Below are positions 21,512 to 62,946 of a DNA stretch of 64,000 nucleotides, piece after piece. A program made the translations under genes and the position numbers. The stretch comes from Escherichia coli. Its GTDB lineage: Bacteria; Pseudomonadota; Gammaproteobacteria; Enterobacterales; Enterobacteriaceae. The notes below the pieces were generated by a model, which did no database searches, had not been told where the DNA came from, and saw nothing but the letters and a program-made list of their open reading frames with translations. Numbering within the stretch: position 1 is the stretch's first letter; each line of letters begins with the position of its first letter. The stretch is taken from the NCBI RefSeq assembly GCF_013315695.1, contig NZ_CP054353.1; one strand, 5' to 3'.

Positions 21512-24065
21512 ACCGGTAGGCGATCTGGTCGTTGATTTGAGTCTGGATGCGGCCAGATTTGACGAGCAGATGGCCAGAGTCAGGCGTCATTTTTCCGGTA
21601 CGGAAAGTGATGCGAAAAAAACAGCGGCAGTCGTTGAACAGTCGCTGAGCCGACAGGCGCTGGCTGCACAGAAAGCGGGGATTTCCGTCGGGCAGTATAA
21701 AGCCGCCATGCGTATGCTGCCTGCACAGTTCACCGACGTGGCCACGCAGCTTGCCGGCGGGCAAAGTCCGTGGCTGATCCTGCTGCAACAGGGGGGGCAG
21801 GTGAAGGACTCCTTCGGCGGGATGATCCCCATGTTCAGGGGGCTTGCCGGTGCGATCACCCTGCCGATGGTGGGGGCCACCTCGCTGGCGGTGGCGACCG
21901 GTGCGCTGGCGTATGCCTGGTATCAGGGCAACTCAACCCTGTCCGATTTCAACAAAACGCTGGTCCTTTCCGGCAATCAGGCGGGACTGACGGCAGATCG
22001 TATGCTGGTCCTGTCCAGAGCCGGGCAGGCGGCAGGGCTGACGTTTAACCAGACCAGCGAGTCACTCAGCGCACTGGTTAAGGCGGGGGTAAGCGGTGAG
22101 GCTCAGATTGCGTCCATCAGCCAGAGTGTGGCGCGTTTCTCCTCTGCATCCGGCGTGGAGGTGGACAAGGTCGCTGAAGCCTTCGGGAAGCTGACCACAG
22201 ACCCGACGTCGGGGCTGACGGCGATGGCACGCCAGTTCCATAACGTGACGGCGGAGCAGATTGCGTATGTTGCTCAGTTGCAGCGTTCCGGCGATGAAGC
22301 CGGGGCATTGCAGGCGGCGAACGAGGCCGCAACGAAAGGGTTTGATGACCAGACCCGCCGCCTGAAAGAGAACATGGGCACGCTGGAGACCTGGGCAGAC
22401 AGGACAGCGCGGGCATTCAAATCCATGTGGGATGCGGTGCTGGATATTGGTCGTCCTGATACCGCGCAGGAGATGCTGATTAAGGCAGAGGCTGCGTTTA
22501 AGAAAGCAGACGACATCTGGAATCTGCGCAAGGATGATTATTTTGTTAACGATGAAGCGCGGGCGCGTTACTGGGATGATCGTGAAAAGGCCCGTCTTGC
22601 GCTTGAAGCCGCCCGAAAGAAGGCTGAGCAGCAGACTCAACAGGACAAAAATGCGCAGCAGCAGAGCGATACCGAAGCGTCACGGCTGAAATATACCGAA
22701 GAGGCGCAGAAGGCTTACGAACGGCTGCAGACGCCGCTGGAGAAATATACCGCCCGTCAGGAAGAACTGAACAAGGCACTGAAAGACGGGAAAATCCTGC
22801 AGGCGGATTACAACACGCTGATGGCGGCGGCGAAAAAGGATTATGAAGCGACGCTGAAAAAGCCGAAACAGTCCGGCGTGAAGGTGTCTGCGGGCGATCG
22901 TCAGGAAGACAGTGCTCATGCTGCCCTGCTGACGCTTCAGGCAGAACTCCGGACGCTGGAGAAGCATGCCGGAGCAAATGAGAAAATCAGCCAGCAGCGC
23001 CGGGATTTGTGGAAGGCGGAGAGTCAGTTCGCGGTACTGGAGGAGGCGGCGCAACGTCGCCAGCTGTCTGCACAGGAGAAATCCCTGCTGGCGCATAAAG
23101 ATGAGACGCTGGAGTACAAACGCCAGCTGGCTGCACTTGGCGACAAGGTTACGTATCAGGAGCGCCTGAACGCGCTGGCGCAGCAGGCGGATAAATTCGC
23201 ACAGCAGCAACGGGCAAAACGGGCCGCCATTGATGCGAAAAGCCGGGGGCTGACTGACCGGCAGGCAGAACGGGAAGCCACGGAACAGCGCCTGAAGGAA
23301 CAGTATGGCGATAATCCGCTGGCGCTGAATAACGTCATGTCAGAGCAGAAAAAGACCTGGGCGGCTGAAGACCAGCTTCGCGGGAACTGGATGGCAGGCC
23401 TGAAGTCCGGCTGGAGTGAGTGGGAAGAGAGCGCCACGGACAGTATGTCGCAGGTAAAAAGTGCAGCCACGCAGACCTTTGATGGTATTGCACAGAATAT
23501 GGCGGCGATGCTGACCGGCAGTGAGCAGAACTGGCGCAGCTTCACCCGTTCCGTGCTGTCCATGATGACAGAAATTCTGCTTAAGCAGGCAATGGTGGGG
23601 ATTGTCGGGAGTATCGGCAGCGCCATTGGCGGGGCTGTTGGTGGCGGCGCATCCGCGTCAGGCGGTACAGCCATTCAGGCCGCTGCGGCGAAATTCCATT
23701 TTGCAACCGGAGGATTTACGGGAACCGGCGGCAAATATGAGCCAGCGGGGATTGTTCACCGTGGTGAGTTTGTCTTCACGAAGGAGGCAACCAGCCGGAT
23801 TGGCGTGGGGAATCTTTACCGGCTGATGCGCGGCTATGCCACCGGCGGTTATGTCGGTACACCGGGCAGCATGGCAGACAGCCGGTCGCAGGCGTCCGGG
23901 ACGTTTGAGCAGAATAACCATGTGGTGATTAACAACGACGGCACGAACGGGCAGATAGGTCCGGCTGCTCTGAAGGCGGTGTATGACATGGCCCGCAAGG
24001 GTGCCCGTGATGAAATTCAGACACAGATGCGTGATGGTGGCCTGTTCTCCGGAGGTGGACGATGA
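21504..24065 (+). CDS. H: Tail tape measure protein H
   Basis: 853 aa, coiled-coil rich, lambda gpH. Confidence 0.9.
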   Translation: MAEPVGDLVVDLSLDAARFDEQMARVRRHFSGTESDAKKTAAVVEQSLSRQALAAQKAGISVGQYKAAMRMLPAQFTDVATQLAGGQSPWLILLQQGGQVKDSFGGMIPMFRGLAGAITLPMVGATSLAVATGALAYAWYQGNSTLSDFNKTLVLSGNQAGLTADRMLVLSRAGQAAGLTFNQTSESLSALVKAGVSGEAQIASISQSVARFSSASGVEVDKVAEAFGKLTTDPTSGLTAMARQFHNVTAEQIAYVAQLQRSGDEAGALQAANEAATKGFDDQTRRLKENMGTLETWADRTARAFKSMWDAVLDIGRPDTAQEMLIKAEAAFKKADDIWNLRKDDYFVNDEARARYWDDREKARLALEAARKKAEQQTQQDKNAQQQSDTEASRLKYTEEAQKAYERLQTPLEKYTARQEELNKALKDGKILQADYNTLMAAAKKDYEATLKKPKQSGVKVSAGDRQEDSAHAALLTLQAELRTLEKHAGANEKISQQRRDLWKAESQFAVLEEAAQRRQLSAQEKSLLAHKDETLEYKRQLAALGDKVTYQERLNALAQQADKFAQQQRAKRAAIDAKSRGLTDRQAEREATEQRLKEQYGDNPLALNNVMSEQKKTWAAEDQLRGNWMAGLKSGWSEWEESATDSMSQVKSAATQTFDGIAQNMAAMLTGSEQNWRSFTRSVLSMMTEILLKQAMVGIVGSIGSAIGGAVGGGASASGGTAIQAAAAKFHFATGGFTGTGGKYEPAGIVHRGEFVFTKEATSRIGVGNLYRLMRGYATGGYVGTPGSMADSRSQASGTFEQNNHVVINNDGTNGQIGPAALKAVYDMARKGARDEIQTQMRDGGLFSGGGR

Positions 24066-58599: not shown

Positions 58600-59727
<1,128 letters not shown>

Positions 59728-60004
59728 TTATGTTGGCGTTTTCTATTCAGTATAGAAGTGGGAGCGACTGGGCGAGATGCGGAAGTTCTGGAATATTTCT
59801 TTTTTTTGGATGGTGACTGAAGCAAATTGGCTACATTTTGCAATGTGACCAGTTGCGTCATAGCTGGCTGGTGGCGAAGAATTTTGACGATTGCGGCATG
59901 CAGAAAAAAACGGGTTCAGCTTCAGTTGATCAAATGGGGAGTGAGAAGTCCGAAACAGGATTTACTGTATAAATAAGGGTCTTCCCCGATCATGGTGGGA
60001 AGAC

Positions 60005-61225
60005 TCAGTACGCCATATTCAGTTTCCCATAGTGGAACATAACTCCCAGTTTAAAGCGTTCCCGGTTTCGGTATCCCCTGGCCTTTATCCTCAGCAGTCT
60101 GATCTTGCTGTTCAGCGCCTCCGCATTTCCATTCGAGACGCGATGACGCATTGCATTCAGTATTCCGTATAACCGTTTTTTAATGGTTTTCGCTGCGTTT
60201 TTCATCATCGGCACATCACATTCAGACGCCAGCGATATCCACTGCAACCAGTCATTCCTGCGTTCTGTGCTCCAGGGGCGATCCCAGATATTTTTTGCCA
60301 GCTCTTTCAGTGTCCAGCACTGGCTTGTCTGTTGCATCTGTTCCCGCAACCACATCAGCTTTTCCTGCCGGGACTCAGTCATCCATTTGTCGCTGTACTG
60401 CCACAGGAAGCGGGTACCTTTGGCCTGACGACGACTTTCAACAGGGAGGTGCGGATGTTCATTCTGGCGGGTTTTATCAACCACTTCGCCCAGTTGCTTC
60501 GCCACATGGAAGCGATCGAAGGCGATTTTCTCGACCGCATTGGGTAAATGGATACGCGCTGCTCTTATATAGCCCGCATTCATGTCCATCGACAGTGTTT
60601 TGATGGCCAACAACTGACTGTCAGTAAGCGAACGGAGATAGCTGGCAAGACTCTCTGTGCCACGATCATCGGTTAATGCCAGTGCCCGCCCGTCGCGATC
60701 AGATACCACGGTTATATACCTATGCCCTTTTTTAAAGGCGACTTCGTCTACATTCATATGACGCACTGATAAAGGCTTTTTAATCCGCGACAGGCCTCGC
60801 TTAACCGCGCGGGTCATGATGCCGTCAACGGCATTCCAGCTAAGTTTAAGTTGTTTTCTGACCGCATCAACGGTGCTGATTTTAAGCCATGAGAGCACGA
60901 ACGATTCGAACAGCAGAGTGTACCGACTGCCGGAACCTGCCCACGGTACAGGCAGAGTCTGGCAGCCATGCTCCGGGCACATAACGCGGGGAACATCGGC
61001 TTCTACTAATGTCATGAACTGGCAGGTATCAAGGTGGCGCCATTTACGATGTCGGTGATCGTGAACAGAACAGGATTTCCTGCAGGTCGGACAGGTTAAC
61101 TGAGTATTTTCAGCAATTCCGACTGTAACAGTAACGGAACCTGCATTTTCATCGAGGGTAAGGGATTTAACCTGCCATGGTGCAGTCAGGTTAAGGATAT
61201 GGGCATAGAGGGATTTTTCGTCCAT
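60005..61225 (-). CDS. ISL3-family transposase
   Basis: 406 aa; N-terminal zinc ribbon (CPTC..CPEHGC); DDE-type core. Confidence 0.85.
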   Translation of the reverse strand: MDEKSLYAHILNLTAPWQVKSLTLDENAGSVTVTVGIAENTQLTCPTCRKSCSVHDHRHRKWRHLDTCQFMTLVEADVPRVMCPEHGCQTLPVPWAGSGSRYTLLFESFVLSWLKISTVDAVRKQLKLSWNAVDGIMTRAVKRGLSRIKKPLSVRHMNVDEVAFKKGHRYITVVSDRDGRALALTDDRGTESLASYLRSLTDSQLLAIKTLSMDMNAGYIRAARIHLPNAVEKIAFDRFHVAKQLGEVVDKTRQNEHPHLPVESRRQAKGTRFLWQYSDKWMTESRQEKLMWLREQMQQTSQCWTLKELAKNIWDRPWSTERRNDWLQWISLASECDVPMMKNAAKTIKKRLYGILNAMRHRVSNGNAEALNSKIRLLRIKARGYRNRERFKLGVMFHYGKLNMAY

Positions 61226-61243
61226 ATAATTTCATTCTGAAGC

Positions 61244-61762
61244 TTACTTTAAACTGATATTATTATTTTTTGCCCACTTTCTTAATCTTCCATTAGCGTT
61301 GGCGTAAGGCGAAGATGTGTTAAATGAGATCATTCTCCCCATCGTCCATTTTGTGTACCATGGTCTTCCATACAAAATATCATCGGTACGATCATTAATA
61401 AGGTTCACAATCTCATTTTTTACAGTCTGAAGTTCAGCTACTAACAACTCATAACTTAACTCACTGTAATCTGAGTAAAATTTTTGAGCAAGAAGGCCAA
61501 GCTGATTCCATTTATAGCCAGTTTCCGGAAAATCGACAGGCAGACCTTTAGCATCAGAAGCGATCCACTTTACAACAAGAGCATTCCATCCAAGCAGATA
61601 CGAAACGAGATCACGAACACTCATCTCCGTTCCTTTGGCGTGTCCGTCCATTGATTTATCTGAAGTAATTTCTGGTGGGATTGTGTTGAGGTAACTAATT
61701 AATTTACTAAAATTTTTATCAATAGCTAAAAGCAGTTCAGCTTTTGTTTGCGGCACACTCAT
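61244..61762 (-). CDS. ClbS/DfsB-family protein (DUF1706)
   Basis: 172 aa; blocks ..DGHAKGTEMSVRDLVSYLLGW.., ..DFPETGYKWNQLGLLAQKFYSDY.., ..LYGRPWYTKWTMGRMISFNTSSPYANANGRLRK.. recalled as ClbS-family signatures. Confidence 0.7.
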   Translation of the reverse strand: MSVPQTKAELLLAIDKNFSKLISYLNTIPPEITSDKSMDGHAKGTEMSVRDLVSYLLGWNALVVKWIASDAKGLPVDFPETGYKWNQLGLLAQKFYSDYSELSYELLVAELQTVKNEIVNLINDRTDDILYGRPWYTKWTMGRMISFNTSSPYANANGRLRKWAKNNNISLK

Positions 61763-61906
61763 AAGAATTCCCTCTCATGTAAAAAGAGACACCATAAAGG
61801 TACTGTGTGGTGTTTGAAAATCACTCAATTATGTACCACCCACCACAACAGGGGAAGACCCATAAATAAACAGTTATTTTGTTGAGGAAGGGTAAGATAA
61901 CTGCGG

Positions 61907-62140
61907 GTGCCTGAAGCTTTCCGGTTTCAGGTTTACTTTGAGGTCTGGAAAGATGAAGCCCCAGGAGATATTTCTATCAACCCTGGGGCTGCCACTCCAA
62001 ACCCGAACAATTTGGATGGTAGTCCCTTCTTCGCATGGAGGCAATATAAACATGCTGACGAAATATGCCCTTGTGGCAGTCATAGTGCTGTGTTTAACGG
62101 TGCTGGGATTTACGCTTCTGGTCGGAGACTCGCTGTGTGA
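61907..62140 (+). CDS. mok-type regulatory reading frame overlapping hokE (the antisense Sok RNA would lie here on the minus strand)
   Basis: Overlapping frame starting at GTG 61907 upstream of hokE; typical hok/sok architecture. Confidence 0.35.
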
Positions 62141-62204
62141 GTTTACGGTGAAGGAACGTAATATTGAGTTTAAGGCTGTTCTCGCTTACGAACCGAAGAA
62201 GTAG
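62052..62204 (+). CDS. hokE: Hok-family small toxic membrane peptide HokE
   Basis: 50 aa [50 protein letters not shown]. Confidence 0.85.
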
Positions 62205-62325
62205 CCGCTGTGCGGGGAGTAATCCCCGCATATCCGGTTGTCAGGTCAGGATGGTAAGGCACCTGCTTTACACTTTCGCCCGCGGTCAGCAATGGCTGCG
62301 GGCGAATCGTACCAGATGTTGTCAA

Positions 62326-62946
62326 TTAATCGTGTTGGCACAGCGTTATGACTATTTTTTCTTTTATCTGCCAGTGCACAGCAAACTGCTCATCCTCTAG
62401 TCGAATGATGATCTGCTGTTTATTCCAGCTAATTATCTGATAATCCAGAAAACCTTGAGCGGCCTGTATCTTGCTTGCCTTAAATGCGCTCTCTTTGGCG
62501 GAAAATGCCAGTGTCAGCGCCAGAGAAAAGGTTAAACCGCATTCTGCGAGTCGCTCGTGTTCTGCTGGTGTAATAATGTTGTCTGTCAATTCTCTAGCGG
62601 TTTGTACAGAGAAAATCTCTTCGATATCAATGCCAATCGGTTGACGAGATACCACGGCTAATGCCGTAGTCCCATAGTGACTAATGCTGCCGTATACCCC
62701 CGCAGGCCACACAGGTTGGCGTAGCTCGCCGATTGCGGGCACACATTTATAGCCATATTCCCGCAGCGCATAAACTGCAGCGATCCGTCCGGCTAAATGC
62801 TCTGTTTTACGTTTACGTCCAGCGTGTTGCAGTTGCGCGTAGTGCGGCAGCCAGAGTAAATCCTGCTCGCGAAAACTCGCAGGATCGAACTCAACAAAAT
62901 GCAGCGTATGTCCGGTAAAGGGGAGGGCGGTATGCGTAGTTTTCAT
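62326..62946 (-). CDS. entD: Enterobactin synthase phosphopantetheinyl transferase EntD
   Basis: 206 aa, MKTTHTALPFTGHTLHFVEFDPASF.. Confidence 0.85.
   Translation of the reverse strand: MKTTHTALPFTGHTLHFVEFDPASFREQDLLWLPHYAQLQHAGRKRKTEHLAGRIAAVYALREYGYKCVPAIGELRQPVWPAGVYGSISHYGTTALAVVSRQPIGIDIEEIFSVQTARELTDNIITPAEHERLAECGLTFSLALTLAFSAKESAFKASKIQAAQGFLDYQIISWNKQQIIIRLEDEQFAVHWQIKEKIVITLCQHD

Follow-up and report, generated by a model that had tools for sequence, protein, structure and literature searches.

Insertion sequence ISEc53 lies within the LexA operator of an intact hokE gene in Escherichia coli and, like its relatives, appears to favour LexA-box palindromes

Organization of the hokE region

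The stretch of Escherichia coli DNA analysed here (64,000 nucleotides of contig NZ_CP054353.1, assembly GCF_013315695.1; hereafter the window) ends on the right in the ybdK-hokE-entD-fepA region, and carries between ybdK and the toxin gene hokE a copy of ISEc53, an insertion sequence (IS) of the ISL3 family (Table 1). The element occupies the LexA operator of hokE, which it has cut at the centre, and copies of ISEc53 and of its relatives at other loci lie in the same kind of site; it is this targeting of SOS boxes, revealed by the hokE insertion, that is of main interest, over the effect on hokE itself. A preliminary description of this DNA had reported an intact hokE with an ISL3-family element just upstream, and both are confirmed by the open reading frame (ORF), Pfam matches, the transposase domains and the annotation of an identical genome. 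The predicted toxin matches the Pfam Hok/Gef domain (PF01848) with an E-value of 2.2e-08 and 34 bits (cut-off 22), differs from K-12 HokE by a single codon (GTG for GCG, giving V8 for A8), and is named HokE (WP_000956465.1) in the 100%-identical genome of MS 21-1. Window positions 59700-62330 are present at 100% identity in three complete genomes, including MS 21-1 and MSB1_4I, and the gene names in these identical genomes are ISEc53-family transposase, ClbS/DfsB family protein and HokE. The toxin-antitoxin function, with toxicity of Hok and its neutralisation by Sok, is putative.

The limits of the IS were fixed by aligning both flanks with the uninterrupted loci of K-12 EMG2 and MS20675, in which the native sequence reads ...CACTGTATAAATAAACAGCTATTTTGTTGAGGAAGGGTAAGATAACGGCGGGTGCC... 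A raw inverted-repeat search returned arms at 59964-59999 and 61839-61874, and the alignment places the ends of the element at GGGTCTTCCCC.../...GGGGAAGACCC, with 61862 as the first native base on the right. The boundary at 61873 given in the preliminary description is therefore 12 bp too far to the right, and the comparison with uninterrupted strains that it had proposed establishes the empty site, the target duplication and the native right flank. Membership of the ISL3 family is indicated by the transposase domains (DDE_Tnp_ISL3, HTH_Tnp_ISL3 and Zn_ribbon_ISL3 in Pfam), the inverted repeats and the 8-bp duplication, and identical copies of 1884-1885 bp are present at other loci.

Inside the element and upstream of the transposase gene is a cargo gene, whose product matches PF08020 over residues 1-165 (E 3e-54) and contains the DUF1706 domain. 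By domain it is of the ClbS/DfsB type associated with colibactin self-protection, and its protective activity is putative; a 'clbS-like' gene adjoining an ISL3 transposase has been described previously (bioRxiv 10.1101/2025.11.17.686825). The ISEc53 cargo region is found in 674 of 5,426 complete E. coli genomes (~12%), at 937 places, 260 of which are on plasmids.

The insertion divides a LexA operator

The empty site in the window lineage is TACTGT-ATAAATAA-ACAGTT, and in K-12 it is CACTGTATAAATAAACAGCT. The LexA box consensus is TACTG(TA)5CAGTA with an invariant CTG-N10-CAG (PMC11228462), and the rebuilt site, TACTGTATAAATAAACAGTT, agrees with this consensus at 17/20 positions. In MG1655 it is the sole CTG-N10-CAG between ybdK and the end of hokE. 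Table 1 of PMC6590174 includes hokE among E. coli genes whose SOS box is known, and its box has a heterology index (HI) of 4.9 (PMC11228462). The IS cut falls at the exact centre of this operator, leaving CTGT plus 8 bp on the left and 8 bp plus ACAG on the right, and the operator 20-mer spans -49 to -30 relative to the predicted transcription start, overlapping the -35 position.

A position weight matrix (PWM) built from IS flanks, with a maximum score of 31.5, scores the rebuilt site at 26.4, the left junction at 5.7 and the right junction at 4.3; the next best 20-mer in the whole window scores 12.7. By the same matrix there is no LexA-like box, such as could bring the cargo or transposase gene under SOS control, at the junctions or inside the IS, where the best fully internal 20-mer scores 4.3. 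LexA binds as a dimer to two half-sites, and the IS-bearing allele offers one half-site at each junction. The occupied box is the only strong SOS box in the window, and since the split it has ceased to be an operator with two half-sites. An exact CTGT-N8-ACAG occurs just once more in the 64 kb, at 23556-23571 (CTGTCCATGATGACAG); this site has a GC-rich centre and is free of IS.

Table 1. Features of the ybdK-fepA region of the window, with window coordinates
Feature	Position	Strand	Details and basis
Left operator half	59963-59976		TACTGT plus ATAAATAA copy at 59969-59976
Right operator half	61862-61875		ATAAATAA copy at 61862-61869 plus ACAGTT
8-bp direct repeat ATAAATAA	59969-59976 and 61862-61869		Target duplication, confirmed against the empty site
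ISEc53 (ISL3 family), 1885 bp	59977-61861	-	Inverted-repeat search, empty-site alignment, identical copies elsewhere
Terminal inverted repeats, imperfect	59977-59999 and 61839-61861		GGGTCTTCCCC..., 19/23 identical
ISL3-family DDE transposase, 406 aa	60005-61225	-	Pfam PF01610 (E 1.3e-58), PF13542, PF14690
Cargo: ClbS/DfsB-like four-helix-bundle protein (DUF1706), 172 aa	61244-61762	-	Pfam PF08020, RefSeq name
hokE core promoter (predicted)	61870-61898	+	-35 position ACAGTT 61870-61875, -10 TAAGAT 61893-61898; from spacing to +1
Full-length hokE mRNA (predicted), 408 nt	61905-62312	+	Rfam match, fold, hairpin
hokE leader	61905-62060	+	Rfam RF01794
sokE antisense RNA	61949-62008	-	Coordinate transfer from MG1655 ncRNA sokE b4835
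sokE promoter (predicted)	62015-62043	-	-35 TTGCCT, 17 nt, -10 TACCAT; read from sequence
hokE coding sequence, intact	62052-62204	+	50 aa, Hok/Gef domain; ORF listing, Pfam, RefSeq name
3' fold-back element	62257-62264	+	Minimum free energy fold
Terminator hairpin	62275-62306	+	Hairpin search; strong
ybdK	58600-59718	-	ORF listing and Pfam
entD	62326-62946	-	ORF listing and Pfam
fepA	from 62996	-	ORF listing and Pfam

The hokE/sokE RNA locus to the right of the insertion

The DNA to the right of the IS matches the Rfam hok/sok leader (RF01794), the region on which Sok acts, over its full length, 1-157, with 83.5 bits (gathering score 59; E 2.2e-18). Because position 1 of this model, which represents the 5' end of the plasmid R1 hok mRNA, falls at about 61905 (GGGTGCCTGAAGC), the hokE mRNA is predicted to start there. 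The MG1655 annotation has the sokE RNA at 607733-607792 (-) and hokE at 607836, and since no insertions or deletions separate the two loci over this interval, sokE takes the window position given in Table 1, where its sequence is identical to that of K-12. In the predicted fold of the mRNA the first eight bases, GGGUGCCU (61905-61912), pair with AGGCACCU in the 3' fold-back element; the minimum free energy is -170.6 kcal/mol and none of 100 shuffled sequences is as stable (z -6.0). The modelled 5'-3' pairing would correspond to the fold-back arrangement typical of hok mRNAs, of the tac/fbi type, by which the full-length transcript is kept inert. Upstream of the predicted start, ACAGTT stands 17 bp from TAAGAT, and this core-promoter stretch is conserved across all aligned hokE alleles. 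A strict consensus scan for promoters and terminators over 61700-62340 returned no promoter on either strand, and is silent both on the native promoters and on an outward promoter at the IS end. In K-12, IS186B begins 19 bp past the hokE stop codon and removes the fold-back element and terminator; the window locus, judged by its predicted parts, is a structurally complete hokE/sokE from leader to terminator without this IS186 truncation.

These positions alter the picture given in the preliminary description, which had placed Sok control upstream of the locus and a mok-type frame ~35 bp from the IS. sokE lies inside the hokE leader, with its predicted promoter further right. The supposed frame is a GTG ORF at 61907-62140, a mechanical ORF only that starts 2 nt into the predicted mRNA, and it is rejected as mok; no sign of a genuine mokE was found at the locus, where the best in-frame upstream ATGs, at 61953 and 62016, are unconfirmed candidates. 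The proposal that the IS may have uncoupled hokE from its native regulation holds in that a control element has been hit, and fails as to which one, the element being the LexA operator and not the promoter or Sok. By their inferred positions promoter and Sok lie essentially to the right of 61873, an arrangement that the description had itself set against its proposal; the -35 position straddles 61873 and is still native.

RefSeq annotates a 'hypothetical protein' ORF at window 61874-62083 (-), antisense to the hokE leader and sokE, in many genomes and often flagged as frameshifted; its counterparts in other analysed loci (numbered with an L prefix) are at L001 933-1202 and L002 1937-2205. It is probably a spurious call over RNA genes. 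In several strains the hokE unit is present as a tandem duplicate of ~502 bp per copy: MS20675 (L001, 933-1951), ATCC 43896 (L208) and two of ST131 type (L209 and L211). The duplicated unit begins ~20 bp upstream of the LexA box and takes in the promoter, leader, coding sequence and terminator. Every copy carries an SOS box of its own, and the IS has entered copy one in some alleles and copy two in others.

Repeated insertion at the hokE operator

The hokE/ISEc53 junction of the window is present, in the same orientation, in five of the 5,426 complete E. coli genomes, among which one ST131 strain also carries IS150 and ATCC 43896 has its second tandem hokE copy hit. In TUM13064 the same nucleotide is occupied with the same ATAAATAA duplication and ISEc53 in reverse, and in at least six further genomes it is occupied by the 1316-bp element ISKox3. 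Single-nucleotide polymorphisms in the flanks vary between the strains hit at hokE, which therefore represent different backgrounds, and the hokE box has been hit independently at least four times. In the window allele the IS genes are directed away from hokE, and in TUM13064 and the ISKox3 alleles toward it. In the ST131 strain 2017_APHA (L209, 3534-4903), IS150 lies between ISEc53 and the first hokE copy, with two ISs thus standing upstream of hokE.

Target sites of ISEc53 and its relatives

The flanks of other ISEc53 copies were examined because matches to the element ran 14-17 bp past both IS ends. Six further E. coli loci were found, comprising tisB/istR, sbmC, a plasmid dinI-like-umuDC operon and three prophage positions, and all of the E. 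coli copies at different loci (7/7) lie in CTGT-[8-bp duplication]-ACAG. A wider survey combined a protein scan of species-representative genomes with the transposase and searches for the shared end motif in the DNA of viral and metagenome contigs, and its flanks were deduplicated to 155 distinct flank/end combinations. In 123/155 of these, CTGT occupies precisely positions -12 to -9 counted from the IS end, where chance would give 1 in 256 per flank, and the remaining flanks are mostly one mismatch away (CTGG 5, ATGT 4, GTGT 3, TTGT 2). The consensus of the flanks derived from position frequencies is aTACTGTATATATAT up to the IS end, and when mirrored it is the LexA consensus (TACTGTATATATAT). 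All 13 of the 13 complete insertions with an intact duplication have CTGT-N8-ACAG. Independent insertions share a single target sequence whose register relative to the duplication is constant, as expected of a site-directed element. There is no orientation rule relative to the SOS gene, with both orientations occurring at hokE, sbmC and umuD-type sites, as is expected because the target is palindromic.

Neighbouring genes were taken as those facing outward and starting within ~150 bp of the insertion, and were named by NCBIfam. They include SbmC, DinI-like, SSB, RecA, Cho, YdjM, Tag, UmuD/HumD, DNA polymerase IV (DinB) and SulA, together with small prophage genes and colicin-like genes, the latter named from N-terminal resemblance only and without an NCBIfam match. 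Several small prophage proteins beside targeted boxes receive no function from NCBIfam or PHROGs. Their genes start 20-40 bp downstream of the boxes (L052, L054, L057, L066, L071, L195 and others), and the proteins belong to phrog_3893 (79 aa), phrog_450 (~90 aa, with weak anti-repressor similarity), phrog_340, phrog_698 and phrog_1993, and may be prophage switches under SOS control.

A passenger-less relative of 1315 bp, with ~70% transposase identity, is present in Candidatus Symbiopectobacterium and in K. pneumoniae ATCC 13883 and has the same targeting. Candidatus Symbiopectobacterium endolongispinus (L014-L046) has dozens of the 1315-bp copies, which occupy the SOS boxes of genes such as recA, ssb, sulA, cho, ydjM and dinB. 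Many of these copies have non-matching 8-bp flanks, as expected after recombination between IS copies, and the SOS regulon of the species looks systematically disrupted. In Izhakiella capsodis (L034, 1534-3748) a 2215-bp relative with the same ends occupies a perfect box, CTGT-TTATTTAT-ACAG; its cargo gene is a different one, encoding 293 aa without a Pfam match, and two ORFs make up the split transposase. What first looked like a 'large cargo' variant of 4,013 bp at L155 (1980-5992) is instead an ISEc53-like copy with a nested IS21-type element; its transposase is interrupted by istA/istB-like ORFs of IS21 type, and its duplication, GCTTATAT, is intact in a perfect box.

The plasmid elements ISKox3 and ISCfr12, which are passenger-less too, lie in CTGT-N8-(A/C)CAG in 5/5 of the cases examined, and four of these five adjoin umuD-type, DinI-like or S24 peptidase genes. 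In the IncX3 blaNDM-5 plasmid pNDM5-CNEC001 (L212, 1201-2516), for example, ISKox3 occupies CTGT-ATGCATAT-ACAG beside a umuD-like S24 peptidase gene. ISKox3 has matches in 1,676 plasmid records, with near-full-length matches in 1,462. Its position on IncI, IncF and Shigella plasmids (L213, L214, L216) is the box of dinI-like or umuDC operons.

In E. coli strain 4/4 (L217, 1052-3544), ISEc53 lies within the fimB coding sequence at the degenerate site GTGT-ATATATAT-CCAT, splitting the gene for the type 1 fimbrial switch recombinase, and the same site is occupied again in metagenome loci L138 and L162. One target with a canonical outer motif has a GC-rich centre, CTGT-CCTTCGGA-ACAG.

Interpretation and alternative explanations

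The interpretation that we consider probable is that the IS has split the hokE LexA operator, thereby uncoupling SOS control of hokE and not Sok control, and that the clade to which ISEc53 belongs selects the LexA-box palindrome, with direct recognition as the likeliest means. ISEc53 would have transposed into the operator, cutting at its centre and duplicating the central 8 bp. As a LexA dimer needs two half-sites, the split operator should not repress hokE, and transcription of the gene would become independent of SOS. The core promoter (-43 to +1), Sok, the fold-back element and the terminator all appear native, such that the toxin would still be restrained post-transcriptionally and the allele would therefore be tolerated. 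With the IS genes pointing away from hokE in the window allele, read-through into hokE is not expected. The consequence for hokE specifically is probably modest.

More generally, ISEc53, ISKox3, ISCfr12 and the Symbiopectobacterium element would select (TA)CTGT-N8-ACAG(TA), the gamma-proteobacterial LexA box, with staggered cuts made directly after CTGT on each strand and symmetric about the dyad. Most likely, the transposase itself reads the palindrome directly and symmetrically. This mechanism is favoured by the occurrence of both orientations at the same sites and the dyad symmetry of the cuts; by off-target sites that are box-like yet without LexA's invariant C/G (fimB, and the ATGT, GTGT and TTGT half-sites); and by the one GC-rich centre and the insertions in capsule genes (PMC12057282).

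Several points weigh against this interpretation or restrict it. Under strong selection ISKox3 enters AT-rich capsule genes (PMC12057282), and the specificity is a strong preference and not an absolute rule; natural insertions are filtered by selection, which could somewhat enrich intergenic operator sites. The sequence data are compatible with both direct and LexA-assisted targeting. At hokE, the mRNA start and the -35 and -10 positions are placed by homology and spacing, and ACAGTT is a poor -35 hexamer; if the true promoter lay to the left of 61862, the IS would have severed hokE from it and not derepressed the gene. The literature on SOS control of hokE is inconsistent. LexA binding and SOS induction have been reported for K-12 hokE: PMC1891008, citing Fernandez De Henestrosa 2000, gives the hokE transcript as SOS-induced. 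In K-12 RNA-seq from 2024 hokE changed 0.47-fold and 0.89-fold, with no induction by azidothymidine (AZT) and no dependence on lexA (PMC11228462). In practice LexA may exert little control over hokE, and the regulatory effect of splitting its operator may be small.

Two alternatives concern hokE itself. Loss of both the promoter and antisense control, by an insertion landing in the promoter and Sok region, is very improbable: the IS does come within 44 bp of the predicted mRNA start and the strict scan leaves the native promoter unconfirmed, but everything from 61862 rightwards is native DNA that agrees with uninterrupted alleles, the Rfam leader model is matched in full (1-157), and sokE lies within the leader with its promoter further right. 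That the insertion silences hokE through loss of the true promoter or of upstream promoter elements, leaving the locus inert much as IS186 does from the 3' side in K-12, seems unlikely, even though IS insertion is a known route of inactivation of K-12 chromosomal hok loci (e.g. IS186B), the predicted -35, a weak one, lies right at the junction, and the start is inferred. Against silencing, positions -43 to +1 are unaltered, and the tandem hokE unit starts only ~20 bp upstream of the LexA box, which suggests that little upstream sequence is needed.

The other alternatives concern the choice of site. The pattern might reflect no real specificity, arising from an AT-rich preference together with selection, sampling or shared ancestry; ISL3 elements generally make 8-bp AT-rich duplications, and many database copies are clonal. 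This is scarcely credible given that after deduplication CTGT still occurs at -12 to -9 in 123/155 flanks against a chance of 1 in 256, and that the neighbours differ widely, include canonical SOS genes, and lie on chromosomes, plasmids and prophages of several genera. A stronger case can be made for guidance by LexA, in which the transposase captures an operator occupied and bent by the LexA dimer and the specificity is LexA's own. The target and LexA consensus sequences coincide over all 20 bp, down to the flanking TA and the (TA)n centre; the E. coli chromosomal sites that were hit are among the best LexA boxes (tisB HI 1.8, sbmC HI 2.8, hokE HI 4.9; PMC11228462); and metagenome flanks include boxes matching the chromosomal umuDC sequence (umuD HI 2.1). 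We nevertheless regard LexA guidance as rather unlikely, since the off-target site in fimB (GTGT...CCAT) and the ATGT, GTGT and TTGT half-sites do not have the invariant CTG/CAG, the site with a GC-rich centre (CTGT-CCTTCGGA-ACAG) and the capsule-gene insertions under selection fit it poorly, and bound LexA would cover the half-sites beside the cleavage points.

A bolder reading, which we offer as speculative, is that the clade is an 'SOS-box hunter' that uses the LexA operator as its attachment site, and that it might capture LexA-bound DNA or have evolved a specificity that rewires the SOS response and places cargo. hokE would then be one of many operator splits that derepress or disconnect hokE, tisB, sbmC, umuDC, recA, sulA and others; cargo such as the clbS-like gene would be placed at damage-responsive loci, on plasmids with SOS boxes and in prophages; and effects on mutagenesis, persistence and plasmid biology would follow.

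Significance

SOS control of hokE is disputed for K-12, and the window strain provides a natural allele with which to ask if such control matters, its only visible lesion being a halved LexA operator. The carriers of ISKox3 include global IncX3 blaNDM plasmids, and homing to LexA operators, if true, would explain the umuD-ISKox3 context familiar from papers on resistance plasmids. Each new insertion would alter one SOS promoter, with recA, sulA, umuDC, dinB and toxin genes among those affected, and the conserved operator would give the elements safe landing sites on chromosomes, plasmids and prophages. The clade is also a compact model for a DDE transposase that reads a 16-20 bp palindrome also read by a host repressor.

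Relationship to known systems

The window locus resembles hok/sok of plasmid R1 and hokE/sokE of K-12 in its Hok/Gef domain, hok/sok leader, Sok inside the leader, fold-back and terminator, and like the K-12 locus it lies between ybdK and entD on the chromosome. Unlike K-12 hokE, which has lost its 3' part to IS186B, it has an intact 3' part and carries its IS upstream, in the LexA operator; to our knowledge the hok of plasmid R1 has no LexA box. The toxin loci tisB/istR, dinQ/agrB and symE/symR are similar in that each pairs a small toxin with an antisense RNA as antitoxin and has a LexA box in its promoter region, and the tisB box is likewise an ISEc53 target. hokE differs from tisB, dinQ and symE in belonging to the Hok family with mRNA fold-back control and in that its SOS induction is reported inconsistently.

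The element is the catalogued ISEc53, encoding the same proteins (WP_000343765.1 and WP_000115885.1), with listed copies at 99.6-99.9% DNA identity. ISEc53, ISKox3 and ISCfr12 have in common an ISL3 transposase with zinc ribbon and helix-turn-helix, imperfect repeats and 8-bp duplications, and ISEc53 differs from ISKox3 in having the clbS-like cargo gene upstream of the transposase. A search of the open literature, with ISfinder and subscription journals outside its range, found no link of ISEc53, ISKox3, ISCfr12 or ISL3 elements to LexA or the SOS box, and no description of a sequence-specific target for this ISL3 clade; there is some chance, though we think it the lesser one, that LexA-box targeting has already been noted somewhere.

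Site-specific elements of other kinds are known, including IS1397 and ISKpn1, which target repetitive extragenic palindromic (REP) sequences, IS30 with its palindromic hot spots, Tn7 at attTn7, and the res-site hunters Tn5053 and Tn402. The ISEc53 clade is like these in having a short, conserved, repeated target that is mostly intergenic and also occurs on plasmids and phages, and like IS30 in that the target is palindromic and symmetric about the staggered cuts. We know of none among IS1397/ISKpn1, IS30, Tn7 and Tn5053/Tn402 that uses the operator of a transcription factor as its attachment site. Thus, while hokE/sokE, ISEc53 and ISKox3 are already catalogued, the use of a global repressor's operator as attachment site appears to be new, and the clade differs from the other site-specific elements in that each of its insertions edits one node of the SOS regulon.

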